NCBI GenBank assembly: GCA_963681965.1 | Contig: OY820579.1 | Span: forward strand, 3,872,001 to 3,936,000 | Source of the DNA: a bacterium | GTDB lineage: Bacteria; Electryoneota; JAOADG01 | Direction: 5' to 3' | Length of the DNA: 64,000 nucleotides | Shown here: piece after piece, positions 10,649-30,124 of the stretch | Numbering within the stretch: position 1 is the first letter of the stretch | Layout: the number at the start of each line of letters is the position of its first letter | Notes under the pieces: model-generated | What the model was told of the DNA's origin: nothing | What the model saw: only the letters and a program-made list of their open reading frames with translations | Databases searched by the model: none | Translations under genes and position numbers: made by a program

Positions 10649-11677
10649 TTAGTACTTGATGTATTGGAATACCTGAACGCGCTGATTGTACTGATCGGCG
10701 ATGAACAGACGATCCTTCTTGTCGAATGCCAACCCTGCCGGTAGCGAAAACTGTCCGGGTTCTTTACCGGCAGCTCCGAAATAGAGCAACAGCGTACCAT
10801 CGGATTTAAACACCTGAATATTGTCGAATGCGGCATCGGACACGTACACATTCCCTTCGCTATCGATCGCAATCCCCTTCGGACGATTGAAACTTCCCGG
10901 GACATTGTCCGGCTGACCAAATGAATGCAGATACTTGCCATCCTTATCGAACACTTGAACCCGGAAATTCATCGCATCGACGACAAACAATCGCCCTACT
11001 GTATCGCAAACGACATTGGTCGGAAGATTGAATTGACCATTGTCCATCCCTTTCGAGCCAACCGTTCGCAACAGCTTGCCAGCACGATCGAAGAATTTTA
11101 GATTACAATCTTTAGTATCGACGACGATGAGTTCATGCGACACGGGATTGAATGCGACCCCGGATGGTCGAACAAACGATTTACTGGTTCCGATATCGGT
11201 GACAAAATCGTGTTTGGCATTGTACTTCTTCACCATATTCAATCGGACATCGGTCACGAACACATTGTTGCTGTCGTCGAACGCGATCGCCGCGGGTTCG
11301 ATCAATTGTCCATTACCGCTATTTCCCAAAAATGTCAATGCATCGTTGTTATTTTTCGGATTTTCATCGAACACCAACACGCAGCGGTTACCGGCATCGC
11401 TGACGTAAATCCGTCCGTTTGCGTCGATTGCAACACCGTACGGTTTAATCACTTTCGATACGGTTTCCCGTCCGGCAATGGTCTCTTTCAGCTTGTTGAA
11501 GCTGCCGCTGGTTACATCGGTTCGGTCGGAAATCGATTTCAGATAGCGCAAACGGGGTTGTTCCGGCGGAGACGGGTAGACAATATCCGTTTTCACCGCT
11601 TTACGCGGTGCGCAGCCAAACAGAAATAAACCGAATATGAATACCAATGCGAATTGGGACAGGGTTTTGCGGGTCAT
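10649..11677 (-). CDS. NHL-repeat beta-propeller lipoprotein
   Basis: Lipobox LFLFGC; YPSPPEQPRLRYL; repeats F..PxGIAIDS.GNVYVSD. Confidence 0.9.
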   Translation of the reverse strand: MTRKTLSQFALVFIFGLFLFGCAPRKAVKTDIVYPSPPEQPRLRYLKSISDRTDVTSGSFNKLKETIAGRETVSKVIKPYGVAIDANGRIYVSDAGNRCVLVFDENPKNNNDALTFLGNSGNGQLIEPAAIAFDDSNNVFVTDVRLNMVKKYNAKHDFVTDIGTSKSFVRPSGVAFNPVSHELIVVDTKDCNLKFFDRAGKLLRTVGSKGMDNGQFNLPTNVVCDTVGRLFVVDAMNFRVQVFDKDGKYLHSFGQPDNVPGSFNRPKGIAIDSEGNVYVSDAAFDNIQVFKSDGTLLLYFGAAGKEPGQFSLPAGLAFDKKDRLFIADQYNQRVQVFQYIKY

Positions 11678-11913
11678 AGCGACCTTTCTCCGAATCGAGA
11701 TTACAGAAATAATAAAATTCTATGTCTAATCATATATACGAAAATTTGACGGGATCCGACAACTGGTTTCGCTGTTTCGAAGTTCGGTGTTTGATCAATG
11801 GTAGTAGTAGTTGACCGATCCATATTCATCTCGATCCGTCTGACATTTTTTGTTGAAGGAAAACGGTGAACGATTCGGTGAACTTGTATCGATTAGAGTG
11901 TCGGAACTACAGT

Positions 11914-12012
11914 TTTCAAGTGTACAGACAAGAGTGTCTGTACCTACAGAATTTCAAGTGTACAGACAAGAGTGTCTGTACCTACAGATACACACGGGGG
12001 TCCGCCCCTACT
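11914..12012 (+). repeat. 38-bp tandem REP-like hairpin (GTACAGACAAGAGTGTCTGTACCTAC x2) plus a CGCCCCTAC hairpin
   Basis: Two identical copies starting at 11914 and 11952. Confidence 0.85.
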
Positions 12013-12061
12013 ACCGATCGCAACTATTTCCAAGAGATACTATCGAACAAATGACTGAAAT

Positions 12062-12095
12062 AAAAACAAGGTACCGGATTGCCCGATACCTTGTT
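12062..12095 (-). terminator. Probable intrinsic terminator after the decaheme gene
   Basis: AACAAGGTA...TACCTTGTT stem with an A run on the + strand. Confidence 0.55.
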
Positions 12096-12146
12096 CGTCT
12101 TGGATAACACGCCTTAAGACCCCCCGTAAGACGTGGAACTCTTATC

Positions 12147-13709
12147 TTATCGCCATCGCTTGTAGACGACAGTACGACCAAAGTGGTTGTTGCTCTGTGC
12201 GTTTACATAAGTACCACGGAGCGAGTCTTTACCAGTATGGCAATTGACATAGCAATAGTTCACGATGTAATCGGCAATGGTATCGCCATTGGAATTAACA
12301 ATCGCGGTATCGCGAGTCGGTTGTCCCCAGAGACCAGAGGTTCTTGGTGCAATCGGCGGAATATACTTGTTGACCAAGCGATAGTAGCCAAACAATGCCG
12401 AACGTCCAACGACAGTATTTGCACCACTACCGATTCGATAGGTCGAGTCGGGATTGGTCAAGCTGTCGCGCTGCGTCCAACCAGTCTTCATGACGCCATT
12501 GGCATCCAATTCACGACCGGTGTACTTCTTGCTCCAACGTACCAGACCAACGCGACCGGTTAATTCCTGAGCCGCAGTCGGACCACCGTGGGCACCGTGA
12601 CATTCCAAACAGGCTTCCTGTCGTTCCTGCGTATTGCTGGAATTGTAGGTAACGTGCGTGTTATGTCGCGAGAATCGGATCGAGTCATTCTTCAGATAGC
12701 CATTGGGACGGCTGGATGCACTGGTACGATAGTAATACGGATCGTGACAGGCATAGCATACGGCATCGGCGACCAAGTCAAAGTTTGCGCCTTCTTCCTG
12801 ATTCATTCCAGGTACATACGAACGCTTCAACTGCGGATACGATGTCGTGCCGCCTTCGGAAATCGTGTAGCTCAAACCGTGGAGACCATTCGATGCAGTT
12901 GAGTCACCGTGACAGTCAGTACAGTTGATCTTCGACGTGCTGGTCATGGTCGGTGTTGCAGTCGATGCATTCGACCACCACGACGGGGTGACCAACATCT
13001 TATTGGTGACTGCCGCCATCGATTCGACCTTGGCAATAACCGAGTTCTTGCCAATGCCGAGAATCGGGTGATAAGCAGAACGGGTCGTATCGAGACGTGC
13101 CACCATATCGGTATGGCAAGAGAGACACAACGTCGCCTGACGGGTGGCTTTGAAACCATCGTCGTGCTTGTGGCAGTTGGTGCACTTGTCCGAACCAGCA
13201 TGCTGACCTAAGCTAGCAGTGGTCGGGTGTACGCCAGATGCGTTGTTACGGAAGATACTGGTATTGGTATGGCAAGTTTCGCAAACGCCATCGTACGGAA
13301 CGGTGACGCCGGTGGCTTCGTGAATGAAGTCGGCGGAATCGCGGAACGCCATTGCCTTGGAACGACCGTCGGGAAGGACGACTTCGTTCTTCAGATAGTT
13401 ATGCGCGTAGCCGGCTTGATGCTGGTGCGGATTGTGGCAATTCTCGCACATCATCGTGTCGCCTTGCGCGTGGACGGTCGCAGTCGTCGCCACACCGCCA
13501 GCGGCGTGACAAGTCGCGCAAACCACATTCGACAACCAATTTCTTGGTGCCGGAATCGTACCGACTGGCACGTGGCAACTTCCGCAATCCATTGCGTTGG
13601 TTGAATCGTGCGGTGCATCAAGTCGATTCACTTCTGCTAAGGACGCTGGTACGTATACGATCATCGTCAGCGCCGCTGCAATTAGAAACATTCGCGTTAG
13701 AAGCTTCAT
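12147..13709 (-). CDS. Secreted multiheme cytochrome c (9 CxxCH + 1 CxxxCH)
   Basis: Signal peptide from MKLLTRM (RBS GGAG); CGSCH, CATCH, CENCH, CETCH, CTNCH, CLSCH, CTDCH, CYACH, CLECH, CYVNCH. Confidence 0.93.
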   Translation of the reverse strand: MKLLTRMFLIAAALTMIVYVPASLAEVNRLDAPHDSTNAMDCGSCHVPVGTIPAPRNWLSNVVCATCHAAGGVATTATVHAQGDTMMCENCHNPHQHQAGYAHNYLKNEVVLPDGRSKAMAFRDSADFIHEATGVTVPYDGVCETCHTNTSIFRNNASGVHPTTASLGQHAGSDKCTNCHKHDDGFKATRQATLCLSCHTDMVARLDTTRSAYHPILGIGKNSVIAKVESMAAVTNKMLVTPSWWSNASTATPTMTSTSKINCTDCHGDSTASNGLHGLSYTISEGGTTSYPQLKRSYVPGMNQEEGANFDLVADAVCYACHDPYYYRTSASSRPNGYLKNDSIRFSRHNTHVTYNSSNTQERQEACLECHGAHGGPTAAQELTGRVGLVRWSKKYTGRELDANGVMKTGWTQRDSLTNPDSTYRIGSGANTVVGRSALFGYYRLVNKYIPPIAPRTSGLWGQPTRDTAIVNSNGDTIADYIVNYCYVNCHTGKDSLRGTYVNAQSNNHFGRTVVYKRWR

Positions 13710-13751
13710 TAAATCTGCTCCTGAAAGATTACAATTGATAAAGGTCAATGA

Positions 13752-14990
13752 TTATTTAACAAGAAGCATCTTCTTGGTCAATTCGGTCGCAGTGCCGTTG
13801 CCGGTTGCCGTCAGCTTGCAGAAATACACGCCGCTAGCCGCCGCACCAGTACTGGATTTTTCCGAATTCCAAGTATACTCGTGTTGACCTGCCGAAAGGT
13901 TTCCTTCGACCAAGGTCGCTACTTGCTGTCCCATCGCATTCCAAATCGTAAGCTTCACGTTTTGGTTCTGGCTCAAGGTAAACCGGATGCGGGTGGAAGC
14001 GTTGAACGGGTTCGGGTAGTTGCCGTTCAGCTTAAACTCTTTCGCTACCGGGTCCGAATTCGAGACACTCAAAACGATATCGTTAACGGTAAAGGAGTAG
14101 ATTTGCGAAGTTAGACTCGAAATGGCATACAGGCGATTGCCGACCATTGCGATGTCCATCGGCAGCACAAACAAATTGTGCTGTGCGTCGTCCGAGACGA
14201 TACGACCGAGATACTCGCCTTGTGCGTCGAGCATCTGCAGATCGCTTTGATACAAGTCCGAAATATAAATGCGGTTCAACTGATCAACGGCGATTCCCTG
14301 GGGACGCGTGAACGTTCCATTGAAAACCCATTCGTTGTTCGCATTCTGATAAGTGAAGCGTCCGCTCTGTCGCAGATAACTACCATTGCGGTTGAACATC
14401 TGCACGCGGGCATTGCCCTGATCTACGACGTAGACTTCGGTTTCAGACACATTCATGCAGATCCCGGCGGGGAACATGAACTGACCGTTGCCGCTGCCTG
14501 CACCACCGAAGGCGCCGATGCGGCTACCGTTGTTGCCGTAAATCTTGACTTGGTGTGCTTTCGAATCGGTTACATAAATCGAACCATTCGATGCGACGAC
14601 CATGTCGTTGGGTTTTTCGAATTCGCCGACGCCGTTACCGAGTGAACTGATGAAAACGCCATTGGCATTCAAACGATCGACTTGAGTATCATGTCCGACC
14701 AGCAGATCGCCGTTCGGAAGGACGCCCAAAGCCACCGGTTGATGAATTGCGATTTCACCGATCGACGTGCCGGTGCTCGAAAGAATTCGAATCCGGTCGT
14801 TCGCCGGTTCGGAAACATAAACTGTTCCGTTCGCGGCGACAACCAGTCGCTCCGGTTGGTTTGAACCCTGCCCGTTGATGTCCGGTGCATTAATATTGGC
14901 AGGATAAGCAAACGCGAATTGTGCAAACACGATACCTAACAGCATCATGCTGCCGACGATTATTAAAATCTTGCTATTGCGATTGGCCAT
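13752..14990 (-). CDS. NHL beta-propeller protein with C-terminal T9SS type A/FlgD-like sorting domain
   Basis: NHL repeats, then NYPNPFNASTRIRF...ASGVYFCKL...KKMLLVK. Confidence 0.9.
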   Translation of the reverse strand: MANRNSKILIIVGSMMLLGIVFAQFAFAYPANINAPDINGQGSNQPERLVVAANGTVYVSEPANDRIRILSSTGTSIGEIAIHQPVALGVLPNGDLLVGHDTQVDRLNANGVFISSLGNGVGEFEKPNDMVVASNGSIYVTDSKAHQVKIYGNNGSRIGAFGGAGSGNGQFMFPAGICMNVSETEVYVVDQGNARVQMFNRNGSYLRQSGRFTYQNANNEWVFNGTFTRPQGIAVDQLNRIYISDLYQSDLQMLDAQGEYLGRIVSDDAQHNLFVLPMDIAMVGNRLYAISSLTSQIYSFTVNDIVLSVSNSDPVAKEFKLNGNYPNPFNASTRIRFTLSQNQNVKLTIWNAMGQQVATLVEGNLSAGQHEYTWNSEKSSTGAAASGVYFCKLTATGNGTATELTKKMLLVK

Positions 14991-15041
14991 TGTTTTAATC
15001 CTTCGTTGCCGATTTGATATACGACTCCTCGCTATGTTATT

Positions 15042-15057
15042 GGCAAATAGTGTGCCA
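15042..15057 (-). promoter_or_regulatory. sigma54 (-24/-12) promoter
   Basis: Minus strand TGGCACACTATTTGCC (GG-N10-GC), about 50 bp upstream of the 14990 start. Confidence 0.8.
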
Positions 15058-15985: not shown

Positions 15986-16008
15986 CATCGAATTGCGAAG
16001 AAATCCGG

Positions 16009-17400
16009 CTAGACGAGCAAACCGTGTTTCTTCATTTTGTAGCGAATGGTGTCACGCGTGATCGACAGCAACGACGCCGCGCGCGACTGATTGCCGTCGC
16101 AGAGTGCCAGTGCCTTGACAATCGCGATCTTCTCCAATTCTTCAAGCGAAAATCCTTCTTCCGGAAGATAGACTTGAATACCGCTATTGTTATTGGCGAT
16201 AGTACTCGCGGATTTGATCTTATGAAATTCGGACGGGAGATGTTCCTGCCGAATTAGCGAATCGCTTTCCAGAATCAAAACCCGCTCAATCACATTCTTG
16301 AGTTCGCGGACATTGCCGGGCCATTGATAAGAGAGAAACGACGCTTTCGCTTCGTCATCGAGACCAGTGAAATTCTTGGAGAATTCGTTGTTATATACCG
16401 AAATAAAGTGCTGGGTCAATTTTAAAATATCGTCGTGCCGGTCGCGCAATGGCGGCAGGTGGATATTGATGACTTTCAACCGAAAATAGAGATCGCGCCG
16501 GAAGGACCCGTTTTCCATCGCAGCCATCAAGTCGCGATTGGTGGATGCTATCACGCGGACATTCATCTTGATGTCCTGCATCCCGCCCAGCCGTTTGAAC
16601 GAGCGCGTTTCCAGCACCCGCAACAATTTCACCTGCATCTGGGTGCTGATTTCGCCGATTTCATCGAGCAGCAGCGTACCGCCGTCGGCTAATTCGAATT
16701 GACCGCGCTTCATCTGCTTGGCGTCGGTAAATGCCCCTTTTTCGAAGCCGAACAATTCGCTTTCGAGCAGCGTTTCCGGCAGTGCGGCACAGTTGATTGC
16801 CTCAAATGGTTTCTGGAAGCGGCTGGACTCGAAGTGAATGACCCGTGCGACCAGTTCCTTGCCGGTGCCGGATTCCCCTTCGATCAACACGGTGGTAGCT
16901 TCGGAGCTGGTGATTTTGCGAATAATCTCAAAGATATGCCGCATCTGCGGCGAATCGCTGATGATGTTGGAAATGCCGTGGGTATTGCGTAATTCACGCC
17001 GGAGCGACAGTACTTCGTTGTTGATCTTGTTCGCCTTGAGCGCCTTCTCGACGTTCAGCCGGACTTCTTCGAAATCGATCGGTTTGTTGATATAGTCGTA
17101 TGCGCCGATCCGCATGGCTTCCACCGCGGTATCGATCGTTCCGTATGCCGTCATGAAAAACACGATTGTCGACGGGGATTGATGGCGAATAATCTGCAAG
17201 ACTTCCAAACCGCTGGCAGCGGGAAGTTTGTTGTCGAGAAATACCACTTCGGGAAGCAACTTATCGAATTTCTCCAGCCCCTCTTCCCCACTGGCGGCAG
17301 TAATGGTTTCATAGCCAAGCTGTTCGAATTGTTTTGCGAGCGACCAACTAATCAATTTTTCATCGTCGATAATCAGAATCTTTAGTTTAGTTCCGTTCAT
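16009..17400 (-). CDS. sigma54-dependent response regulator (NtrC/AtoC/ZraR family)
   Basis: REC domain (ILIIDDE, FLDNKLP), GESGTGKE, GAFTDA variant of GAFTGA, WPGNVREL, Fis-type HTH; start reassigned to MNGTKLK. Confidence 0.95.
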   Translation of the reverse strand: MNGTKLKILIIDDEKLISWSLAKQFEQLGYETITAASGEEGLEKFDKLLPEVVFLDNKLPAASGLEVLQIIRHQSPSTIVFFMTAYGTIDTAVEAMRIGAYDYINKPIDFEEVRLNVEKALKANKINNEVLSLRRELRNTHGISNIISDSPQMRHIFEIIRKITSSEATTVLIEGESGTGKELVARVIHFESSRFQKPFEAINCAALPETLLESELFGFEKGAFTDAKQMKRGQFELADGGTLLLDEIGEISTQMQVKLLRVLETRSFKRLGGMQDIKMNVRVIASTNRDLMAAMENGSFRRDLYFRLKVINIHLPPLRDRHDDILKLTQHFISVYNNEFSKNFTGLDDEAKASFLSYQWPGNVRELKNVIERVLILESDSLIRQEHLPSEFHKIKSASTIANNNSGIQVYLPEEGFSLEELEKIAIVKALALCDGNQSRAASLLSITRDTIRYKMKKHGLLV

Positions 17401-17491: not shown

Positions 17492-19000
17492 TTATGCTTC
17501 ATTGATTTCTTCCATGGTAAGGATCGCATATTCCGGAGCGAATGGGAGCTGAATCGTGAATGTCGAACCGCTGCCCGGTATGCTTTCCACTTTAATGTCT
17601 CCACCGTGACGGCGAATAATTCCGCGACAAATCGCCAATCCGAGACCCGTTCCATTGTGCTTGGTGGTGAAGAACGGTTTGAAAATCAGATCCAATTTTT
17701 CTTCTTCAATTCCGACGCCGGTGTCGGTGACCGATATCTGCATCAACTTGGTCGATAGATTGCAACTCTGCGCCACCGATAATTTTCCACCATTTGGCAT
17801 CGCCTGAATCGCATTCATGATAAAATTCACAAGCACCTGTTGAATTTGTTCCACATCGGCGACTATTTCCGGTGCCTCCGGATCTAATGTTACATCTACT
17901 ACTATATTTACGAGTTTTGCTTTCTGATCTGTTAGTTGCATTGCCTGTGAAATGACCTTATCGATCCGGCAGGGTACCATCCACGGCGGTCGAGGACGGG
18001 AATAAGACAGGAGACTATTGACAGCATTGTCGACTCGGCGGATTTGTCGCAATATTTCTTCAAAAATGGGTTTATTTGCCGAATTTTCGTGAGAATCGTT
18101 CAATAGTACCTGCATCGCGCCCGAGATACCCGCTACCGGGTTTTTGATCTCATGCGCCATTCCGGCAGCTAACTCACCGACATTTGCCAACTTATCCGCA
18201 CGCTGCAACTCGTTGAGGTGGGCGATCCGCAATTCCTCCCGCATCTGATTGAGCCGGTCGATCATCCCGTTGAAGGCGAGTGCCAGCGACCCCATTTCCC
18301 TGGAATCGTCGATCGGGATATGCGATTTAAAATTCCCCTGCTCCACCTCTTTTATTGCGGTATTCATCAATCTGATATTGGTCTGAACAAACCGGAGATG
18401 CACACCGGAAATCACGACAATCAAGGCGGTAATGACAATCAGCGCGACCAGAATATCGTTGCGTTGGTGGATCGATAATTCGCGGCGAATATCGGAAATA
18501 TCCCCTTCGATACTGAGATACCCGATATAAGGGCTGGGATCGTCATGACACGCGATGCAGCGCGGTTCTTTCAGAATTCTCCGCGTCACCGTCATCATAT
18601 CTTTTTTTTCGTCGATAATTTCGTGGGTATTGGGTAGATCCTTGACATTGGAATAGGAGAATTTCGCGATTTGTGGAATGACCATCCCGACATCGGTTTG
18701 ATTGCTGCTATAGCGAACCAACCCTCCGTTAGTAAGAATTCGGATCGATTTGATATGGGTCTGGTGGCGAAGACCATTCAACGAGTTATGAATCTCGGTG
18801 GGATTGTTATTGTTCATGAACAGCATAATACCGTTCATCGTCACCTGCAGCATGGATTCCTGCAGGATCTGGCGCTGGGTAATCAAGCGCTCTTTTTGCG
18901 TTTTGATTGCCACGACACTCACGCCGATAATAGGGAGCAATAGTGCAATCCCCATTGCGACAAAGATTTTTCGCCGTAGGCTAAATCGCTTCGTAGACAT
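17492..19000 (-). CDS. Sensor histidine kinase with a periplasmic CxxCH motif and HAMP domain
   Basis: Two TM segments, [20 protein letters not shown]-box, DTGVGI, FFTTK, GTGLGL. Confidence 0.95.
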
Positions 19001-19135: not shown

Positions 19136-19639
19136 TTATTTATCTTTCGATTTTTCATCATCTTTCGACCAAGACAAGCCATCATAGCTCAATAGCGCAA
19201 AATACAATTTTTGTGATTGATTGTCGGTATGACCCATCATTTTGCTCATTCCAAAATAGGGCATCGTTTTAAACGCCCAGCTATTGTACAGCACGGAATC
19301 GTTCTTGAGCACTGTGACGCGGATCGCGGGATTTTTTTCTTCGCGCGAGAAATTCACCGGTTTTCCCTTGATCATCCAGTGACAATAAAAATCGGATACG
19401 CGAATCGATTGACCGGTTTTTCCGACTGGATATACTTTACCGGGAATCAACGTCATCGGCGGTAACGTATCGCCGTTGCTGGTCAATACGGATATCACCA
19501 CGGATTTTACCAGTGGCAAAGTAGGCGTGTGCTGCACGGAATCGGGATTGACCATACTCGATGGTGGAAATGCGAAAACCGCATTGGACAAAAACAACGC
19601 GAACAGAATTACCAAGACGAAGAGAAAAGATTTTTTCAC
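19136..19639 (-). CDS. Exported protein, DUF2155-like
   Basis: Signal peptide; S.EEKNPAIRVTV...SWAF motif; GTG start. Confidence 0.6.
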   Translation of the reverse strand: MKKSFLFVLVILFALFLSNAVFAFPPSSMVNPDSVQHTPTLPLVKSVVISVLTSNGDTLPPMTLIPGKVYPVGKTGQSIRVSDFYCHWMIKGKPVNFSREEKNPAIRVTVLKNDSVLYNSWAFKTMPYFGMSKMMGHTDNQSQKLYFALLSYDGLSWSKDDEKSKDK

Positions 19640-20385: not shown

Positions 20386-20386
20386 A

Positions 20387-22588
20387 CTATCTGACGACTG
20401 CGACTTTCGGATAACTCTTCATCGGGATCGATCCATGTCGCCGATTCGTTTCCGTGCTCGAAGATTGCGTCTCTTCCATCGTGATTTTTCGGAATGAGTA
20501 TTTCATCAGCACCGGTTCTTTCACGACTTCTTTCAGGACGTCTTCCGGCAATTCCAGCGCCGTCTTGAAGTGCTTCGACCACTTCTTGAAATATGCCTTG
20601 TCGAGCAATGGATAGCTTTCCAGCAATTTGCCGTCGGCGGAATACTGCTTCAGCGTGAACAGCAGATCCTTGCTGTTTTCGACATCCATCGGGAAGACGT
20701 AGCGTTGCTGTTTCTTCAGCTTGATCTTCTTCCGCTCGCTCTTCGCGACGACGGTTTCCGGTTTCGTCTTGCCGCTATCTCCCGCTGCAGCACCCTTCAA
20801 GATCAGCGGTTCCGCAACCACTTCCAGATAACCATCGACGGCTTGCGTCGCGTCTTTATTCTGCAACGTGACAGCGACCGAGACATTGTCGGAATCTTCG
20901 CGAATCGTCCAATCCATCATCCGCGCTGGATATGGTTTCGCATCGGTCATCTTCTCCGGTTTCGATGGTCCGTTGGGATGCAAGTGCAAGAACAACTGCG
21001 GCGATTCGAGATGCGATACGCTATTGACCAGCACCCACTGCTCGGCAGCACTCAACAATCCGACACGGTAATCGATCTTGCTGGGATAACTGACATCGAC
21101 TACGAGTGCTTCATTCGCTTTAATTTCGCCAATACCGTCGAGGATCTGACGGACGCTGTTGCCGAGATCCATCAATTCTTCGGCAGTTCGCGGTTTACGG
21201 CAATCAAATTCTTCGAAATACGAAGGTGACGCATACCCGTTTCGCACCACACTCTGGAACATTGAGGCTTTATGATTACCTTCGAGTTCGACGCGACGAT
21301 TCAACTGCTGTCCGGCATCGGTAGCACGTTTATCGTTCGGCACTTCCTTACCGGCAGCACCCATGATCAAGCGGTTTGCCGGAATACCGGATTCGCTGAG
21401 AACCTGTTTGGCAACCGTGAGGGTACGAGCCAAGCTCATTGCCCGGTTGACACTATATCCACCTTCAAAGTCGGTGTGACCGGTGGCGATCATCAAGAGA
21501 TTGCCATTCAAGCGCGACAGATCGTGATTGACTTCGGACAAAACTTTTTGTTCCGAAGAATTCAGGACATAACTGCCGCGATCGAAGAAAAGGCGCGCTT
21601 TGATACTCGGATTGCGCGAAGTCTGAATACTATCGGTCTTGGAAACAACCCCGGCGCCGGTTTCCGCAGGTGGCGGTGTACCTTTGTCCAATTCCATATA
21701 GGACTGATCGGTGTCGGTCGTTGCATCCAGCGGGAATACTAACCCTTCGGCGTGCTTACCATTATAGGAAATCTTTTTCGATTCCGCCGAGAATGAAACA
21801 CCAATGAAATACTGCCAATCGTATGTACTATGCGATACGCCGACACCACCACCCAACGCGAATTGGATATTCGGTTTCCACTGATACTTCAATCCGGTCA
21901 ATGCCGTCACCGAAACCGGTTTATCGAAGATACTGTTTGACGTCGCCAACAGATCGGAGGTGAACATGAACTGACTGGCAATCAAGCGATCCATGCCCGC
22001 GCCGATATTATCGCGGTTTCGCGTCCGCTCGGAAGGGGCGATGAAATGACTGGCATATAGGTGAAGATGATAACCGTTACCGAGCCGGAATGTATTGATC
22101 ACTTGAATGCCCGGAACAGCGCCATCGTGCTTGAAAGTATCGTTTGCGACGGGGCTGCGTTCGACCAATCCGGCAAATGCCATCCGCCAAGTGCTGGTAT
22201 TGGTGCCGATCGGACGATATTTCACCGACAACAGCGTATGCCCCTCGAAATGCGCGGGCGGCGTCTTCGTACCCCAGATACTCGGGAACGAGAAACCGAC
22301 GTCGATATCGGGACTCAAACCAGTCGTGAGAAACAGCGGGGTTTCGCTGTATTGCAGTGAACCGAATGCAAGCGAACGGTAATAGAAACCGGTACCGAAA
22401 CTGCCGGCAGGATACGGATCGGCACTCGGGGCGATAATTGCACCATGCTGTCCGGTAATGGTCTGTGCGAAACTTCCCGACACAAGAGCGATCAACAAGA
22501 AAATGAAAACTACGGTCGGAACACAGTTGGTAACCGACCAGCGAGAACTGTCAGCGCGAAACAAAGTAGATGTGCGTCGACAGATCAT
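20387..22588 (-). CDS. Outer-membrane protein: N-terminal beta-barrel-like region, OmpA peptidoglycan-binding domain and C-terminal extension
   Basis: GHTD...NRAMSLAR...NRRVE OmpA signature; amphipathic beta-strands ending YFIGVSF. Confidence 0.8.
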   Translation of the reverse strand: MICRRTSTLFRADSSRWSVTNCVPTVVFIFLLIALVSGSFAQTITGQHGAIIAPSADPYPAGSFGTGFYYRSLAFGSLQYSETPLFLTTGLSPDIDVGFSFPSIWGTKTPPAHFEGHTLLSVKYRPIGTNTSTWRMAFAGLVERSPVANDTFKHDGAVPGIQVINTFRLGNGYHLHLYASHFIAPSERTRNRDNIGAGMDRLIASQFMFTSDLLATSNSIFDKPVSVTALTGLKYQWKPNIQFALGGGVGVSHSTYDWQYFIGVSFSAESKKISYNGKHAEGLVFPLDATTDTDQSYMELDKGTPPPAETGAGVVSKTDSIQTSRNPSIKARLFFDRGSYVLNSSEQKVLSEVNHDLSRLNGNLLMIATGHTDFEGGYSVNRAMSLARTLTVAKQVLSESGIPANRLIMGAAGKEVPNDKRATDAGQQLNRRVELEGNHKASMFQSVVRNGYASPSYFEEFDCRKPRTAEELMDLGNSVRQILDGIGEIKANEALVVDVSYPSKIDYRVGLLSAAEQWVLVNSVSHLESPQLFLHLHPNGPSKPEKMTDAKPYPARMMDWTIREDSDNVSVAVTLQNKDATQAVDGYLEVVAEPLILKGAAAGDSGKTKPETVVAKSERKKIKLKKQQRYVFPMDVENSKDLLFTLKQYSADGKLLESYPLLDKAYFKKWSKHFKTALELPEDVLKEVVKEPVLMKYSFRKITMEETQSSSTETNRRHGSIPMKSYPKVAVVR

Positions 22589-23865
22589 TTCTTATGACAC
22601 TCCTGACAAAGCTGCGACATCGAAGCCGCTTTAGTAAACAACTTCGCATTCTCCGTCGCATGGGGATTATGACAAGAGATGCAGGAGAGCTCGCGCTTGG
22701 TGTTGTTAGGATCGCGGACACCGGACAACGGGTGCTTCATCACCGGATGATCTTTGGCGTATTTCGGTTCGTGGCAGGAGAGACACAATTTATTGACATC
22801 GGTGATAAGCAAGCTGAGTTGACTGCTGCTATGCGTAGTATGACACGACATACACTCCCCGCCTTCGAACGGAGCGTGTTTGACCTTGGCTTTGTCGACC
22901 AGATCTTTCAAATCGGAATGACACTCGAAACAAGTTTCCGCGGAATTGCGAGCTTTCGAAACGGGATATCCGGGCACCTTGGGGGTTGAAGCCGAATGAC
23001 AATAGAAACACGTCCAATCGGTTAATGGCGGATGCACACTCTTGCCGACGGTTTCCCACGCATGGCAGGGATAACACATTCGGGTCACGGCGGTGGTAGA
23101 ACCGATTTCGTACGCATTCGGTTGCATCCGGTGACATTCGGCACAGACTTTTTCCGATTCACCGGTATGGAAATTGTTCGCCGTGAAATTATCAATATCC
23201 TCGATATTCGCATCGAAGCTCGGCTTGTAATTGAATGAAACCGTCTTCTCTTCGATGATGCGCCAACCCGCCGCCATGGCACGGATCACGTAATCGTTCC
23301 GTCCCGGTGCCAAATCGATCCGAAAGACGAAGATCCTCCCCATCTTTTCCCGACGGCGTGCTTGCGTCAGATCGATCATTCGACCCTGCAATCCGGAGAC
23401 TTCGAACTTCATTGTAGAGATCGCAGTATCGGCGAGCGCTTTTTCATAAATCTTCAGGAACTCCGGCAACTGAGTGAATTTGCGCAGATCGACCCGATCC
23501 GCCGCCTTGCACTGGGTGTTGAGTATGACTGGTTTCTTGCCGGGATCTTTCGGTTGAATCGTGAGTGTGAAATTCGTGATCAATAAATTCTTGTCGAACA
23601 TCTTCTTGACGATGCGGACAAAATCGTCATTCAGATGATATGAATTCACTTCAAGGGTTTCGCTCTTTTGAATCGCCTGCGTCAATTCGAGAAACATCAC
23701 ACGCAAAGTATCGACTTCACCTACGATATAATGTCGCGGGGTGGTGACGGTGGCTTTATCGGTCGCCGGGAAATAGAGATTGATTGCCGAAGTCGCGCCG
23801 AACACGGCGATCGCGACGATCGACAACACAACCACTACTAACAAACCGATAAGACTACGCTTCAT
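22585..23865 (-). CDS. Octaheme cytochrome c (paired-CXXCH type) with a large non-heme N-terminal domain
   Basis: CAECH, CYPCH, CFYCH, CFECH, CMSCH, CLSCH, CISCH, CQECH; HAP/HP motifs; N-terminal signal or anchor. Confidence 0.92.
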   Translation of the reverse strand: MKRSLIGLLVVVVLSIVAIAVFGATSAINLYFPATDKATVTTPRHYIVGEVDTLRVMFLELTQAIQKSETLEVNSYHLNDDFVRIVKKMFDKNLLITNFTLTIQPKDPGKKPVILNTQCKAADRVDLRKFTQLPEFLKIYEKALADTAISTMKFEVSGLQGRMIDLTQARRREKMGRIFVFRIDLAPGRNDYVIRAMAAGWRIIEEKTVSFNYKPSFDANIEDIDNFTANNFHTGESEKVCAECHRMQPNAYEIGSTTAVTRMCYPCHAWETVGKSVHPPLTDWTCFYCHSASTPKVPGYPVSKARNSAETCFECHSDLKDLVDKAKVKHAPFEGGECMSCHTTHSSSQLSLLITDVNKLCLSCHEPKYAKDHPVMKHPLSGVRDPNNTKRELSCISCHNPHATENAKLFTKAASMSQLCQECHKK

Positions 23866-23881
23866 TTATTTGTGGATCCCC

Positions 23882-25627
23882 TTAATAATTTGCCGGATCG
23901 TGAGTGTGACTATGACACGTGATGTAGCAACTACCGTGATTGGCACCCTGATCGACGAACTCCAATCGCCCGCTCGGCGCCGGTAAGATCCGGGGATCGG
24001 TAAGATCGAAATTGATCAGGTGGTAATTGCGCGAACCGTGCGAATTGTGACAAGTTTTACACGAAAATTGATTGGTCACGACATGCGCCGAATGATTGGG
24101 AAACCGGCTCAAGGTCGCATTGAATAGCGTTGTCCGGTCATGGCACGAGTAACATAGCGCATAGGTCGAACTACCCTCGGCAGTACCCGAAGTCGCAGTA
24201 TACTGATTCTTCAATAACGGTGTGTAGTCCGATCCATGTGGTCCCTGTGCACCGGACGGATCGTTGTTTCCGTGACAACTGGTGCAATTCATCGTCGATG
24301 TCGCCGTCCATGGAGCTAACAATCCGGGTACAAACGAGTTCGTTCCGGGTGCGACTACCGGATGGAAACTTCGATTCAAAGGATCGAATTCAGTCCGTTT
24401 ATTGATTTCATTCGGCGGCAGATTCTGGGAATCGCCGTGGCACTTCAAACAGATTTGATATTCGTACGTTGCCGGGCTGATCTTGACACCACTGATTGTC
24501 ACTCCCCACTCTTGCCGAAGGGTACCGTTGATTTGTCCAATCGTATCGGTATTGGTAACGGCGTGCGCATTGTGGCAATCGGCGCATTCGACGTGTCGTG
24601 TTACCGTCGGTGACTGTTCGGGTAAATAAGAAGACGGTGGCGGTGTCGAATTCAGCGGACCTTCACCGGCATCGTGAATACCGTTTGTCAGGGCAACGGG
24701 ATGTCGACTCGCTTTATTGAATACCGTCACAATTTCAGTCGCGCCGACGGTTTCCAGCGCCGAATTGCGGTTGCCATCGTGACAGGTGTAGCACAAATTC
24801 TCTTCGGACTGTCGGAGCAAACGCGGAGCCGGCGCACCATGATCGACATGACAACTGCTGCAGGCTTGATCGACCAACTGACGATGCTGCGAACTGGTGG
24901 GGTGGCTGTGTTCGGAAACATTCCAACCCGATTTCACATGGCAAGTGACACACAACGCACCTTGCGCCGGATTCATCACTAGAAATTTGCCTTCGGTATT
25001 GTTATGCGGATCGTGACAACTGCGACATTGAACGACGTTGTGACGATCGAGCTTCACGGCAGAACCAACGGGCGGTGCCGAAATTTCCAAATCCTCGGTA
25101 GACAATTCCATCGAGATCGGGTGATCGTCATACAACACCGATCCAAGATTCGCCGAACCGGGCGGCATCATTCCCAATGCCGTGGTGCCAGTCATGGAAA
25201 TTTGACTCGGTTGACTGAGCACCAGACCCAGTGCGATCGTACCGTCGTGGCACGAGAGACAAATTCGCGAAGAACCTTCGGGCTGACCGACGCTAGCTTG
25301 CATCGATCCGCCGGAAGGATAGGTCGTGTAATAGACGGCAGACAATTCGCGATTCCACAATGGCGCTTCAACCGATGCACTGTGCGGTGTGTGGCAAAAT
25401 ATACAGACTTGACTTTCCTGCGAGGCGCGAATGGTGCCGGGACCGGTGATCGATAAATTGTGCGGAGTATTCGAAATCTGACGATACTGCGGTTGAGCGG
25501 ATGCAGATAAGGCGATGGTTAGAAATAGCATCGAAACGACAAGCGAAAGCCTGTTCCGGATTTCCGAAACAGCTCCAAGATTCAGTGATACATTTCGATA
25601 CGCTTTTTTCATGCTCGCGTTCTGCAC
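23882..25627 (-). CDS. Dodecaheme cytochrome c (11 CxxCH + CxxxCH) with an OmcE-like N-terminal tetraheme module
   Basis: TPHNLS...QVCIFCHTPH..PLWNR...CLSCHDG...DDHPIS...CRSCHDPH..FL...LCVTCH, then 8 more motifs; start uncertain. Confidence 0.92.
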   Translation of the reverse strand: MQNASMKKAYRNVSLNLGAVSEIRNRLSLVVSMLFLTIALSASAQPQYRQISNTPHNLSITGPGTIRASQESQVCIFCHTPHSASVEAPLWNRELSAVYYTTYPSGGSMQASVGQPEGSSRICLSCHDGTIALGLVLSQPSQISMTGTTALGMMPPGSANLGSVLYDDHPISMELSTEDLEISAPPVGSAVKLDRHNVVQCRSCHDPHNNTEGKFLVMNPAQGALCVTCHVKSGWNVSEHSHPTSSQHRQLVDQACSSCHVDHGAPAPRLLRQSEENLCYTCHDGNRNSALETVGATEIVTVFNKASRHPVALTNGIHDAGEGPLNSTPPPSSYLPEQSPTVTRHVECADCHNAHAVTNTDTIGQINGTLRQEWGVTISGVKISPATYEYQICLKCHGDSQNLPPNEINKRTEFDPLNRSFHPVVAPGTNSFVPGLLAPWTATSTMNCTSCHGNNDPSGAQGPHGSDYTPLLKNQYTATSGTAEGSSTYALCYSCHDRTTLFNATLSRFPNHSAHVVTNQFSCKTCHNSHGSRNYHLINFDLTDPRILPAPSGRLEFVDQGANHGSCYITCHSHTHDPANY

Positions 25628-25652
25628 TACAATCTACTCAGTACATCTCTCA

Positions 25653-26738
25653 CTATTTATTGATTTTCGGGTCTCCCGGTTCGTTCCGGTCGAGATACTG
25701 AAACACTTGGATCATGCCGTGGTACGTATCGGCAAGATAAATTCGATCCTGACGATCGATCCATATTCCGCCCGGAAGATTGAATTTACCCGGCTCCGGA
25801 TTGCCGGTTTCGCCGAAATTCAGCAACAATCTACCGGCATCGTCGAACAATTGCACTGTCCCGAACAAAGCATCGACGACATACAAATGATTTTTCGAAT
25901 CGACGGCTATCCCTTTCGGTCGTGCAAACGATCCGACGGCGTTCCCCGCCTTTCCGATACTCTGTAACATCGAACCGTCGCTGCGTAATTTCTTCACCCG
26001 GAAATTCAGCGCGTCGGTCACCAGCAAAGTATCGCCACTCATCGCAAGGCTGGTAGGGGTATTCAGACCGAGTGTCGAATCGCCGGCTGTGCCAAATCGA
26101 CCGACACACTCGCCACTCAAGCGATACTTACCAATCTTGTTGCCACCGGCATCGGACACAAAGAGCAATTGATTTTTGGCATCCCACGCGATACCGACCG
26201 GTCGACTGCATTCGGGATCGAATTCGCGGATCGGGTCCAGATTGTGCGAATACACGATTACTTTCCGGATCGACGAATCGACGACATAAACGGAATCGTT
26301 GGCTCCGACAGCCATCGAAACCGGCGACACCAGCCGCGCTTTGACGGTGGCATCCTGCATCCGGTAGTGATTCGGTTTCTGATGAAACAGATACAACCGC
26401 CCCGACATATCCGCGACATAAATCGTGCCATCGCTCCCAGTCGCTACTGCAATCGGTTGCTTCAGTTTGCGCAGATTCGATTTACCCAGTAACCGGACGA
26501 ATAAATTCTCTTTGATATCGAGATCTTCCGGGGTCGCAAAGGCGTAGAGATATCGAATTCGCGCGATCGCCGGAGCCGGGGGATAGACCACCGTGCCATT
26601 CGATTTCATCGCTTTGTTCGTGGCATCCGGACTGCAACTGCTGAGAAAGAGCAAAATGACTGCACCGATCGCCGTTATCCCGCAGGAGAACCAGCGTCGA
26701 ACCAATAATCGATCAATTTCCAAACGTCCGTGACGCAT
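25653..26738 (-). CDS. NHL-repeat beta-propeller lipoprotein (paralog of 10649-11677)
   Basis: Lipobox FLSSC; YPPAPAIARIRYL; GSFARPKGIAVDS; start uncertain. Confidence 0.9.
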   Translation of the reverse strand: MRHGRLEIDRLLVRRWFSCGITAIGAVILLFLSSCSPDATNKAMKSNGTVVYPPAPAIARIRYLYAFATPEDLDIKENLFVRLLGKSNLRKLKQPIAVATGSDGTIYVADMSGRLYLFHQKPNHYRMQDATVKARLVSPVSMAVGANDSVYVVDSSIRKVIVYSHNLDPIREFDPECSRPVGIAWDAKNQLLFVSDAGGNKIGKYRLSGECVGRFGTAGDSTLGLNTPTSLAMSGDTLLVTDALNFRVKKLRSDGSMLQSIGKAGNAVGSFARPKGIAVDSKNHLYVVDALFGTVQLFDDAGRLLLNFGETGNPEPGKFNLPGGIWIDRQDRIYLADTYHGMIQVFQYLDRNEPGDPKINK

Positions 26739-28431
26739 TTAATAGTACCGTAGTATTTTCTTGTCCGTATTCAATTCGTTTCTCGAATTGCAGGAACAAT
26801 TTGATCTCGCGCAACTGGTAATCAAGATCCGATTCGTAGCGATCGTTCGTACTGGTATATCGCCGATTGTAGATATGCGACGTCACGATCGACCAAGTTA
26901 AGTTGCGAAAGATCCGATATTTCATCGTGTTGGTCCAATTCACTGTTTCGTTGAACTGTGGATCGAACCGTGTTTCGGTAATGAGCGCCGATTCCAATCG
27001 CAAACTGCTGTATGGAAAATAGCTTAAAGTGGTACGATCTTCGATATACCGAAGCTTAGCCGTACCCTCGGCGTCCATCAAAACAATCTGATTCTGCAAC
27101 AGCGTCGGTTCCCAGAACCGATAATTAATCTGATTGGTCAGGCTGTTGACGATCTGATAATAATTGGTTGAATCGAGCCGGTTATAAAGCCCATCGGCGG
27201 AATAGCGATTCGTCCAATTCAATCGGTCGGTAAAGACATGTTTCTTTTCGAATGTCCGGTTGCCACGCAAAGTAAAGCGATCTCGCGACGCGATCGTGGC
27301 ACTATTCACTTCAATGAAAATATTGCCCGAATTGCGCCAGGTATTTACCGAATCGTAGGTCAACTTCATGTATTCCAGACCATTCGACAAATATTTCGTC
27401 GACTCGACGTTCAGCATTGCAGTGGAACGGAGATTCTGACGAAACAGCGTGGTTCGAACGACATAATAATAATATTGATTCAATTCGCGCTTGTAATCGG
27501 CTTCTACTGAATTCGACGAAGTATTGGCGTTATACCCTTCGTACGAGTTGTAGCCGTACAATACCGACAACCGGTCGGCACGGCGGAAATTCCGGATCAA
27601 ACGCAAACTGAAACGACCGGTGCGAAATTCGTCGCGATTATTATAATCGATGTCGGCATCGATCGACGTTGTCCGATCGAACAGCGACGAGCGCCCGTTC
27701 AAAGTAAATTGTTGCGTTCGGGCAATGCCGCCTTCGAATACCCGCTTCCGCTGTTCGTCGCGAAAATATGCCGAGACGTTGGCATTTTCACTGTTCCGCG
27801 AGAACTGCACGGTACTGATATGGGTACCATTCGTACCGTAGCGGTTGTTTTCCGCCGAATTGTATTGATATCCCAGCTGAATTCGCGGCAGTCGGGGAAG
27901 CATCACATACAGATTCGATCCGATCAGATTGTCGTACGATTTATCGGTATACTGCTTGTACACAAATTCGGTCATGGTCCGCTTCGCATTGACGCTGAAC
28001 CAGATATTCCGATATTGAAAGAACCTTGCATTCATATCGAACAGGTCGTAAGACCGTTCGATCGAATTCGTTTTGGAAATGGTCTTGTTCGACTGCCGGT
28101 ACTGCGAGCCGATGTAGTAAGTCATGAATCCCGACGAAAGGTAGTAACCTTTGATCCCGAATTTATAATTCTGGATGTATTCGCTTCCATCGTAATTCGA
28201 GACGCCACTTCCGAGATTTCCCAGCGTCCAATAGCGATATCCGTTTTCGGCATACCCTTGGAACACCGCTTTTGACTGTGCATAAGAGGTTGCTTGACCG
28301 AAACCGATAAGCATAAAAAAGAAAATGATGCCACGAAATACATCGTGGCACCATGACTTAACTCTTCCTCTTGTCGTCAAAGCGATCTGTCCTGTCTGGC
28401 TGTTCGAGTGTAATGCCACCACCCGGTACAC
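26713..28431 (-). CDS. Putative large outer-membrane beta-barrel
   Basis: Signal peptide, Tyr/Arg/Asn-rich alternating beta-strands throughout, near-terminal Phe; start uncertain. Confidence 0.7.
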   Translation of the reverse strand: MYRVVALHSNSQTGQIALTTRGRVKSWCHDVFRGIIFFFMLIGFGQATSYAQSKAVFQGYAENGYRYWTLGNLGSGVSNYDGSEYIQNYKFGIKGYYLSSGFMTYYIGSQYRQSNKTISKTNSIERSYDLFDMNARFFQYRNIWFSVNAKRTMTEFVYKQYTDKSYDNLIGSNLYVMLPRLPRIQLGYQYNSAENNRYGTNGTHISTVQFSRNSENANVSAYFRDEQRKRVFEGGIARTQQFTLNGRSSLFDRTTSIDADIDYNNRDEFRTGRFSLRLIRNFRRADRLSVLYGYNSYEGYNANTSSNSVEADYKRELNQYYYYVVRTTLFRQNLRSTAMLNVESTKYLSNGLEYMKLTYDSVNTWRNSGNIFIEVNSATIASRDRFTLRGNRTFEKKHVFTDRLNWTNRYSADGLYNRLDSTNYYQIVNSLTNQINYRFWEPTLLQNQIVLMDAEGTAKLRYIEDRTTLSYFPYSSLRLESALITETRFDPQFNETVNWTNTMKYRIFRNLTWSIVTSHIYNRRYTSTNDRYESDLDYQLREIKLFLQFEKRIEYGQENTTVLLNASRTFGN

Positions 28432-28514
28432 TACCTTTTCCCCTCTAATCGCGTTTAAGATACAACCGGGATTAGGTCAAAGGATACCCTTGGACACAAG
28501 ATGCCACAAATAAT

Positions 28515-29249
28515 TTATTTAATGTGGCAAGTCAGACACAAAGCACTGCCGGAATTGCTCATTACCAAGAAGGGAGCAATCGCATTGCTGTGAACGTCGT
28601 GACAAGAGCTGCATTCGAGCTGATCGTGGCTTGCGCCGTACAGCTTGACCGCGCTACCGGCTGCCGGCAAACGCAATCCGCCGTCCGCCAACACCAACGC
28701 GTTGTCGAATCCAAACGAAATCGGGTGATCGTTGGCGAGGTTATTCACGCCAGCGCCACTGCCACCGGGATAATTTTCACCGATATTGGCACCCAGACCG
28801 CGATGATCGGGCATAAACGGCGAACCGGGATAATACACCTGTCCGAGTTGATCGAAGCCACCGACCATCTGAATCGACGGACCGTAATTGTACAGCATCG
28901 AATTCAATGCGGTAACGCCGTCATGGCAGGAAAGGCAGAGCTTGGATTCGCCCTGGGGCTGGTGAGTTGCCGCATCGGCAAACGTTCCTTGGAACGTCGA
29001 GCTGGAATATGCGGTAAAGGTTTGGCTCGATGCATTGCGGTTCCACAGCGGTTTCTGCGAAGCAGAGGCGGCGTGCGGCGTGTGGCAATAGATACAAACC
29101 TGATTACTTGGGTCGTTCCCCGTCCAGTTTCCACCACCCGTAACCGATAGATCGTGCTTGGTTCCAACGATTTGTGCCGAGGCGAAATTCGCCAGCATAA
29201 GGGTGCCGAGGAATACGATGCAAAGGAATGCGAAAGTTTTCGATTTCAT
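28515..29249 (-). CDS. OmcE-like tetraheme cytochrome c (copy 2)
   Basis: TKHDLS..QVCIYCHTPH..PLWNR..CLSCHDG..NDHPISF..LECSSCHDVH.N...PFL....GSALCLTCH follows the motif order of Geobacter OmcE as I recall it; start MKSKTF. Confidence 0.85.
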   Translation of the reverse strand: MKSKTFAFLCIVFLGTLMLANFASAQIVGTKHDLSVTGGGNWTGNDPSNQVCIYCHTPHAASASQKPLWNRNASSQTFTAYSSSTFQGTFADAATHQPQGESKLCLSCHDGVTALNSMLYNYGPSIQMVGGFDQLGQVYYPGSPFMPDHRGLGANIGENYPGGSGAGVNNLANDHPISFGFDNALVLADGGLRLPAAGSAVKLYGASHDQLECSSCHDVHSNAIAPFLVMSNSGSALCLTCHIK

Positions 29250-29337
29250 GACTCTTTCCTGACAATCAAAAATTATTCGATGACGAACTAGTAACTGGTC
29301 ATGGTCAGACTTCGACCGCAACCGGTTCCAACTTGTA

Positions 29338-29991
29338 TTACTTAATATGGCAGGTCAAACAGAGTTGCGAACCTGCTTTTGTTTCATTCAAAAAGGGACG
29401 CATGTTTTCGGTAGCGCCGTACTTGTGTACATCGTGGCAGCTACTGCACTGCAGCATATTGCCGGATTCGAGCGCCCAACTCGGGAGCGATCCGACGGCA
29501 TGAAGACCGTTGTCGGCAGCGGCTGCGGTAGCGTAGTTAATGGAAATCGGGTGATCGTTGGTCAGACCCGCGGCATCGTTCAAATTCGCCGTTCCGGTGA
29601 GGACATCGCCACCGGTCATGGTGGGGGTACCGCTTCGGGAATAAATCAAGGAATTCATTGCGGTGACGCCATCATGGCAGGAGAGGCACATCAGCGATGA
29701 GCCGGTCACGTTGGGAATAACGCCGTTGGGATCGAACGCGTTGATCGTCGGACTGGAATAGACTTGGAACGTCGTGAGCGGCGTACTGCGGTTCCACAAC
29801 GGTTTCACAGTCGCCGACGCGGCGTGCGGGGTATGACAGAAAATACAGACTTGGGTCTGATTCGAATAGTGTGTGTTGGTTCCGGACGTTGCCGACGATA
29901 GATCGTGGGGTGTCCCACTGATCTGGGCAAACGACACCGAGGCAATCAGTAACAATGCGAATAACAATAAGGTAGCAAATTTCACGGTCAA
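29338..29991 (-). CDS. OmcE-like tetraheme cytochrome c (copy 1)
   Basis: TPHDLSS..TQVCIFCHTPH..PLWNR..SLMCLSCHDG..LTGTANL..NDHPISI..CSSCHDVH..PFL...AGSQLCLTCH; RBS GGGAGG. Confidence 0.85.
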   Translation of the reverse strand: MTVKFATLLLFALLLIASVSFAQISGTPHDLSSATSGTNTHYSNQTQVCIFCHTPHAASATVKPLWNRSTPLTTFQVYSSPTINAFDPNGVIPNVTGSSLMCLSCHDGVTAMNSLIYSRSGTPTMTGGDVLTGTANLNDAAGLTNDHPISINYATAAAADNGLHAVGSLPSWALESGNMLQCSSCHDVHKYGATENMRPFLNETKAGSQLCLTCHIK

Positions 29992-30108
29992 CCTCCCGGT
30001 ACAAGCGCACTTCTATTATGGAACCCGCAGCCCGCTCGATATTCAATGGTAATTTCTTACAATTCGACAAGCTACGTAGAAATAACATGGTTATTCAGTG
30101 AATGAATT

Positions 30109-30124
30109 AGCAAGAAGTGTGCCG
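30109..30124 (-). promoter_or_regulatory. sigma54 (-24/-12) promoter of the OmcE-like operon
   Basis: Minus strand CGGCACACTTCTTGCT (GG-N10-GC). Confidence 0.75.

Follow-up and report, generated by a model that had tools for sequence, protein, structure and literature searches.

Described OmcE-type clusters and related systems

The tetraheme cytochromes OmcE of Geobacter sulfurreducens (PDB 7TFS) and DSOUD_2954 of D. soudanensis (PDB 9YUQ) are encoded by omcE clusters of Desulfuromonadia. One heme of each subunit in OmcE and OmcS is completed by a histidine of the next subunit, and the OmcS heme completed in this way is the fifth of six (PMC9473688, PMC6584659, 10.64898/2026.02.26.708365). 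The minimal omcE cluster contains genes for two multiheme cytochromes, two propeller lipoproteins, OmcE and a large beta-barrel and has been reported for five phyla, whereas the synteny purHDE-resB-ccsB ... ffh is given for Desulfuromonadia and not for the cluster as such (PMC13712944). The same paper treats the anchor and the tip of the filament as open questions and states that the operons examined there offered no tip candidate. A gene cluster of this kind was identified in a window of 64,000 nucleotides (contig OY820579.1 of GCA_963681965.1, positions 3,872,001 to 3,936,000; Electryoneota), in which an earlier note, made from the sequence alone, had placed a putative OmcE-type nanowire locus. 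All coordinates are those of the window unless another contig or genome is named.

Two further clusters are similar in composition. In 'Ca. Tenderia electrophaga' and Gallionella, the uet cluster, proposed for electron uptake, encodes a tetraheme cytochrome, a barrel (UetC) with a predicted strand count of 28, two NHL proteins and a cytochrome with 11 CxxCH (10.1101/2022.05.06.490989, PMC10734462), the last of which is labeled 'doubled CXXCH, c3 family, 11 and 12 haems' in PMC10734462. The occ cluster of 'Ca. Dechloromonas occultata', which is expressed during Mn(III) reduction, is likewise rich in multiheme genes and encodes NHL proteins and a predicted extracellular undecaheme cytochrome; it is likened by description to the present locus and differs in its 19 genes, the 922-aa OccP and the oxidase-like OccS (10.1101/695007).

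The OmcE-type gene cluster

The cluster contains thirteen open reading frames (ORFs) on the minus strand at 10649-29985. The co-oriented run of multiheme, NHL and barrel genes reported in the earlier note is present in full, with the same names and order in the ORF listing. Each of the thirteen ORFs is intact and all heme ligands are kept; the cytochromes carry, in gene order, 4, 4, 11 + 1 CxxxCH, 8 and 9 + 1 CxxxCH heme motifs (the rest being CxxCH), and three genes of the locus encode a Pfam NHL domain.

The first two genes encode OmcE1 (29338..29985), a 215-aa tetraheme protein with a signal peptide and the putative major filament subunit, and its 244-aa tetraheme paralogue OmcE2 (28515..29249), a putative second or minor subunit. 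By sequence comparison, these tandem proteins are true relatives of OmcE, with a homology beyond chance. The OmcE motif order and homology, proposed in the earlier note, were confirmed by a PDB search in which the sole matches of both proteins at E ≤ 0.01 were 7TFS (E 3.5e-33 for OmcE1 and 3.2e-28 for OmcE2) and 9YUQ (E 1.7e-29 and 2.6e-27, respectively). The fold comparison, made for OmcE1 only, used an AlphaFold2 (AF2) model with a predicted local distance difference test score (pLDDT) of 86.5, for which Foldseek returned 7TFS as the sole match at E ≤ 0.001 (E 1.5e-13, TMq 0.68).

Of the 120 OmcE-like relatives listed, 115 were aligned with one another, and five long ones were omitted. The eight heme-ligand histidines (four proximal, four distal) are invariant in 115/115; the chain ends two residues after the last CxxCH in 114/115, and a histidine follows that motif in 0/115. 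The residues for a putative head-to-tail OmcE junction with inter-subunit histidine-heme ligation are kept.

OmcE1 and OmcE2 are 41% identical, and OmcE2 has an insertion before the NDHP motif. The tandem pair occurs in 4/4 carrier genomes (the host and G044, G042 and G026). A tree of 137 OmcE domains separates OmcE1 and OmcE2 into two clades across the four carriers (support 0.99 and 0.98), which argues that the pair is old or has moved as a block. Both fall outside the Bacteroidota and Calditrichota forms, in a tree with weak backbone support from which a donor is not assignable.

Considering the genes, motifs, predicted folds and conserved order, the locus probably encodes a system of OmcE-type cytochrome filaments that would carry electrons across and beyond the outer membrane. 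Filament formation and respiration of metals or electrodes are putative functions of the locus. The minimal omcE cluster of PMC13712944 is complete here, with a 28-strand barrel, two NHL lipoproteins and three further multiheme cytochromes. The locus and the omcE cluster of Desulfuromonadia are alike in the OmcE-fold tetraheme with its eight histidines, the large barrel, the two propeller lipoproteins, the multiheme partners and a nearby resB-like gene. The locus differs in its twin OmcE paralogues, a 12-heme fusion containing an OmcE module, a barrel plus OmpA protein, a propeller tagged for the type IX secretion system (T9SS) together with a decaheme cytochrome, and its own kinase and sigma-54 activator; it has no glycosylation block or ccsB. 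The purHDE-resB-ccsB ... ffh synteny was not found at the locus, which has only a degenerate resB-like gene.

The uet cluster resembles the locus in the components listed above, and the 12-heme protein has the same Pfam label as the uet 11-CxxCH cytochrome of PMC10734462; this likeness is one of architecture. The uet gene order differs. The UetB peptidyl-prolyl isomerase, the UetDEG c7 trihemes, the UetF cupredoxin, ccsAB and batABD are all lacking among the ORFs of the locus, which is therefore not classified as uet.

The 12-heme cytochrome as a candidate filament end-piece

The fifth gene (23882..25627, minus strand) encodes a UetJ-like 12-heme cytochrome (11 CxxCH and one CxxxCH) composed of an N-terminal OmcE module and eight further hemes. 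The module, which went unremarked in the earlier note, covers approximately residues 45-232, and residues 31-232 match the whole of 7TFS (E 7.3e-27). Among 55 aligned members of this family, there is no variation at His56, His169 and His208, and His82 is 98% conserved; the pattern recurs for a third heme pair in His240 (98%) and His263 (100%). At least 2234 relatives of the fused family were found at E ≤ 1e-100. A weak match to the MtrAB complex (PDB 6R2Q, E 8.6e-4) was also obtained.

The histidine that a subunit donates to its neighbor is taken here to be the one three residues after the first motif, as His16 of OmcS. A histidine at this place is present in 115/115 OmcE-like proteins and in 120/120 further twelve-heme relatives, which may partly overlap the 55 aligned sequences, compared with 0/7 octaheme-type and 2/26 pentaheme neighbors; it is also present in 4/4 tail-only forms from Acidobacteriota. 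Since the twelve hemes of the protein are satisfied by its own residues and His82 is spare, the 12-heme protein would join the filament at one end only and block it, an argument that holds on the assumed donor rule.

A complex of OmcE1 (residues 22-215), the 12-heme protein (residues 45-300) and four hemes was modeled. The model scored 0.64, compared with 0.01 for the best of three controls; the mark for this score was reached by 116/157 solved and 2/215 mismatched pairs, counts that are only rough for this job. The runs agreed in at least 92% of contacts, with a partner pLDDT of at least 80. The modeled interface is head-to-tail, with OmcE1 residues 143-145 and 203-209 facing partner residues 72-86, and the best pair is D144-His82.

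The 12-heme protein is tentatively proposed as the missing end-piece (tip or anchor) of OmcE filaments, encoded in the operon, with the balance of likelihood slightly against it. In such a role, His82 of its OmcE module would be offered to the open heme of the last subunit, and its fifth and sixth hemes would occupy the docking face for the next subunit, so that growth stops. The eight-heme tail might then lie exposed as a tip or run as a wire through the 28-strand barrel, and the cap would close a filament that possibly mixes two ancient OmcE paralogues in the host lineage. The protein offers a testable candidate for the start or stop of the filament, a question left open by the 2026 structure paper.

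The eight-heme tail is encoded by a separate gene in Acidobacteriota (loci L016, L018, L022 and L042), where the spare histidine after the first motif is kept; in L018, two neighboring ORFs encode an OmcE module and the tail. L022 belongs to Geothrix fermentans, a cultured organism with a related cluster in the tail-only form.

The gene downstream (22585..23865) encodes an octaheme cytochrome with a non-heme N-terminal domain (8 CxxCH; Pfam Paired_CXXCH_1), which is a homologue of the 329-aa octaheme protein encoded beside omcE in Geobacteraceae (L087; BLASTP E 5.7e-45). Its chain ends two residues after the last CxxCH, and two histidines precede the last heme pair. This ending, together with the lack of the donor histidine, makes it a possible complementary cap at the other end of the filament, although the two histidines may close the last heme pair in cis.

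Outer-membrane barrel, transcription and the alternative of a short conduit

The third gene (26713..28431, start codon uncertain) encodes a large beta-barrel of the outer membrane, 572 aa in length and a putative export pore or mount. The barrel predicted in the earlier note is borne out by an AF2 model built from 14 sequences, with 28 strands and a pLDDT of 92.1. Foldseek returned outer-membrane barrels only (TMq ≤ 0.42). MtrAB is alike in combining a barrel with a paired-CxxCH multiheme chain, but its barrel has a TMq of just 0.39 against that of the locus, and it presumably lacks a polymerizing subunit.

A terminator-like 12-bp hairpin with a U run is present at the start of the barrel gene (28325..28354, minus strand). 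G044 and G042 likewise have hairpins with U runs at this position, with z-scores of -4.2, -4.8 and -3.1, values inflated by the choice of windows after the hairpin had been seen. The hairpin of G026 follows omcE1. The U run also codes for phenylalanine residues of the signal peptide. The hairpin is a possible site at which transcription is stepped down after the subunit genes.

These features bear on an alternative in which the locus encodes a fixed-length porin-cytochrome conduit, as modeled for uet, with one or a few OmcE-like units stacked in and above the barrel and capped immediately to give a short surface wire. An example would be a chain of OmcE1, OmcE2 and the 12-heme protein with the same histidine-heme junction but no micrometer filament. 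Two distinct tetraheme paralogues and a capped module could give such a defined chain, the conserved histidines and the complex model also fit it, and the uet paper puts forward UetA or UetJ as the conduit in a 28-strand barrel and treats polymers as no more than possible (10.1101/2022.05.06.490989). However, the two solved relatives (7TFS and 9YUQ) are long filaments, and the tetraheme genes are the first behind the promoter, with the terminator-like hairpin after them in 3/4 genomes, an arrangement that suggests an excess of subunits over the barrel. A conduit of this type is considered unlikely.

Several points weigh against the filament system favored here. Filaments have been solved or imaged only in Desulfuromonadia, the smallest clusters of which have no described 12-heme protein, and none was seen in the stretches L087, L034 and L023. 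Clusters with the fused form could therefore make short capped conduits. The inter-subunit donor histidine of 7TFS is taken by analogy from OmcS. As 7TFS is already solved, the pass of the complex model may be a memory of that structure and would then indicate likeness and not binding. Finally, the tetraheme genes occur in only 4/79 genomes of the phylum, and the linked ResB-like gene looks degenerate.

Regulation linked to the cluster, as claimed in the earlier note, was supported by a kinase and sigma-54 activator pair and by conserved promoter motifs. A sigma-54 -24/-12 motif for the main unit lies upstream of the first tetraheme gene (30109..30124, minus strand); it is found upstream of omcE1 in 4/4 genomes, 88-164 nt before the end of the scanned region, and the genome contains 0.73 instances of the strict pattern per 10 kb. 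A second motif (15042..15057, minus strand) precedes the unit of the NHL-CTD (C-terminal domain) and decaheme genes and is present in 2/3 genomes examined, being near-identical in G044 and only poor in G026. The rpoN gene is present in the host genome. A sigma-70 promoter scan gave hits at chance level (23 against 25.2 expected). The sensor histidine kinase (17492..19000; Pfam HAMP-HisKA-HATPase) has a CxxCH in its periplasmic domain and is a putative heme-based redox sensor; the motif is at the same place in 6/7 neighboring kinases listed from other loci. The 463-aa activator (16009..17400) is of the NtrC/AtoC type (Pfam/NCBIfam receiver-Sigma54_activat-HTH_8).

Proposed mechanism

In the proposed OmcE-type filament system, the heme-motif kinase would sense the redox state and phosphorylate the activator, upon which the two sigma-54 promoters would fire. 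The main transcript would yield abundant OmcE1 and OmcE2, while the hairpin would lower read-through into the assembly genes. The subunits would cross by Sec, receive heme from a ResB/CcsA system encoded elsewhere, and polymerize head-to-tail, a histidine of one subunit completing the open heme of the next. The filament may leave through the 28-strand barrel or sit on it, helped by the NHL lipoproteins. The 12-heme protein would end the filament at the open-heme end, as a tip or barrel plug, the octaheme protein would link it to the periplasm, and the T9SS-exported propeller with the decaheme protein is a possible surface partner. Electrons would most likely come from the quinone pool via the putative CbcL-like cytochrome b/c protein encoded 12 kb upstream.

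The direction moderately favored is outward, with electrons passing to minerals, humics or partner cells. Electron uptake, as proposed for uet, could by analogy be the alternative direction.

T9SS export of the filament itself was considered and rejected, since the subunits lack a CTD, their chains stopping at the last CxxCH; a CTD is carried only by the NHL protein.

Host and distribution

The host genome (G000) is one contig of 4.24 Mb and is 99.9% complete. Its description in the earlier note as a T9SS-bearing, non-Geobacter bacterium proved correct: SprA and PorV score over cut-off, 199 ORFs have a CTD-like motif, and RecA places the host among deep lineages of the Fibrobacteres-Chlorobi-Bacteroidetes (FCB) group. 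RecA alone did not identify the phylum, the nearest named matches, at about 72%, being from Calditrichota, Delongbacteria and unnamed bacteria. In the RecA tree, the host stands apart from Caldithrix; the tree was used only with respect to Caldithrix. A motif filter had removed G043, G054 and the f4 and f6 genomes from it, and the phylum does not form one clade in it. Two public proteins (P0260 and P0068) are identical to proteins of the phylum-mate G026; their source label, which is assigned to the 'FCB group' in 10.1101/2020.06.18.160598, probably belongs to Electryoneota (AABM5-125-24). The host is probably a deep FCB-group bacterium of the Electryoneota. It has two heme-copper oxidase subunit I genes, and dsrA was not found in the genome. 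Sulfate and oxygen respiration have been reported for the phylum (PMC9324843, PMC10439189). No account of extracellular electron transfer in Electryoneota was found in the searched text of PMC9324843 ('extracellular electron', 0 matches) or in the cytochrome passages of PMC10439189.

The tetraheme genes were found in 4/79 genomes of the phylum by single query and profile alike, the carriers being three of the four genomes of the host's family plus one genome from a different family. The OmcE cluster is therefore regarded as an accessory trait. G044 has the same gene order over approximately 20 kb, including the converging resB, whereas G042 and G026 keep the core, which is rearranged in G026.

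This patchy distribution would also fit a redox module or electron store, periplasmic or secreted, that does not touch solids, or else an acquired block that is in decay and out of use. Similarly in favor are the degenerate ResB-like gene, the repeat insertions in the gaps and the other respiratory options, including the two oxidase genes. Such readings are nevertheless very unlikely, since the thirteen minus-strand ORFs are intact with each heme ligand kept, genomes of two families share the promoter motifs and the gene order, and a large outer-membrane barrel is encoded within the OmcE transcription unit.

Relatives of the tetraheme proteins are encoded in the GTDB collection at no fewer than 576 places. 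The titles of the best 76 of these include Bacteroidota, Ignavibacteria, Calditrichota, KSB1, Zixibacteria, Gemmatimonadota, Planctomycetota, Verrucomicrobiota, Acidobacteriota, Poribacteria, Sumerlaeota, Gammaproteobacteria, Campylobacterales, Deltaproteobacteria and others. A stand-alone OmcE-like gene is present in 66 of the 76 loci, the fused form in 50, both in 41, and two or more stand-alone copies in 14; these loci were picked by similarity and many are short, so that the counts are not prevalences. Putative barrels in these loci were assigned from an unmatched ORF of 560-760 aa in the expected place. One locus (L056), titled as a Thermoplasmata archaeon, has a bacterial-type cluster close to that of the deltaproteobacterial L044 and is probably mis-binned.

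The lineage had been called unexpected in the earlier note, which overstates the case. It is indeed not Geobacter, and its phylum is not among the five named in PMC13712944, but those five phyla and the uet and occ clusters are already in print, and the relatives span at least 576 places. No literature link between OmcE and uet, or between OmcE and the FCB or Planctomycetes-Verrucomicrobia-Chlamydiae (PVC) phyla, was found at title and abstract level. As read from its genes, this is an OmcE-type cluster in a phylum for which none was found described, while the kind itself is known and widespread. OmcE-type wiring is thereby extended to a small uncultured FCB-group phylum, and the neighborhood survey shows the gene set in many phyla besides the five already published.

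Remaining genes, gaps and repeats

Two of the NHL genes encode beta-propeller lipoproteins, with lipobox-like LSSC (lipoprotein 1, 25653..26738) and LFGC (lipoprotein 2, 10649..11677) recognized by eye. Lipoprotein 2 is encoded directly upstream of omcE1 in G026. The third NHL protein (13752..14990) is a propeller of 412 aa with a T9SS type-A CTD (TIGR04183 41.7 bits, cut-off 23; Pfam Por_Secre_tail/FlgD_ig). The 10-heme cytochrome gene (9 CxxCH and one CxxxCH; 12147..13748) begins 3 nt behind it, and decaheme orthologues also lie behind the NHL-CTD gene in G044 and G026. A second decaheme paralogue of 1057 aa with 13 motifs is encoded directly behind the decaheme gene in G026 (L013 4034-7207). 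On the opposite strand, three T9SS-CTD proteins are encoded at 30516-37172 (plus), between this cluster and a second cytochrome cluster.

The 733-aa protein (20387..22588) has a strand-rich N-terminus, a putative beta-barrel, and an OmpA peptidoglycan-binding domain; the OmpA part named in the earlier note was recovered by Pfam at residues 334-431. Its gene follows the octaheme gene in 4/4 carrier genomes. The 167-aa exported protein (19136..19639) is unassigned to a family and has a 52% identical orthologue in the same place in G044. It had been called DUF2155-like, a label that was dropped: no Pfam match was found at E ≤ 0.5, and the Atlas feature scores are just 0.80-0.81.

The converging ResB-like gene (8508..9842, plus strand) lies outside the range that the earlier note had given. 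The likeness to ResB stands, with 31% identity to the ResB encoded at 37714-39105, but no Pfam ResB match was obtained and a glutamine replaces a transmembrane histidine of that ResB. The G044 orthologue keeps the histidine and matches Pfam ResB, so the copy in the window looks degenerate by comparison.

Three gaps, of 747, 1018 and 469 nt, interrupt the run, and palindromic repeats found genome-wide fill the first two. Intergenic mosaics of palindromic repeats, partly in tandem units of 86-90 nt, occur at 9850-10600, 15300-16000 and 19650-20380. Their three motifs have 79, 54 and 60 copies genome-wide and resemble repetitive extragenic palindromes (REP) or miniature inverted-repeat transposable elements (MITE), and the read depth over the mosaics reaches approximately 20-fold that of the flanks. 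A short direct repeat of approximately 40 nt occurs at 11911-11988, between the decaheme and the last NHL gene. Read contigs from two runs of two studies, one of which may be the source sample, are identical to the window at 20318-30300, 15902-19948 and 11959-15442. As they reproduce the locus without differences, an assembly artefact is unlikely.

Functions encoded outside the cluster

The cluster had been described as a self-contained module. This did not hold, because the sole CcsA-family gene of the genome, needed for heme attachment, lies beside a ResB at 326-329 kb of G000, and the quinol-oxidizing cytochrome b/c gene belongs to a separate cluster. That second porin-cytochrome cluster (37714-45238, minus strand) encodes an 870-aa 19-heme/cytochrome b protein, presumably CbcL-like, a 419-aa barrel-like protein, 9-heme and 5-heme cytochromes, a c554-like tetraheme protein and ResB. 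It is located on other contigs in G044 and G026 and is therefore placed outside the OmcE module, of which it is likely the quinol-side partner. Its cytochrome b/c gene is present in 51/79 genomes of the phylum, so that a route from quinol to the cell surface may be common to the whole phylum. A 1432-aa cytochrome with 56 CxxCH motifs is also encoded in the host genome (G000:C1 1530173-1534471, minus strand), as are 17-heme proteins at 168958 and 2961269.

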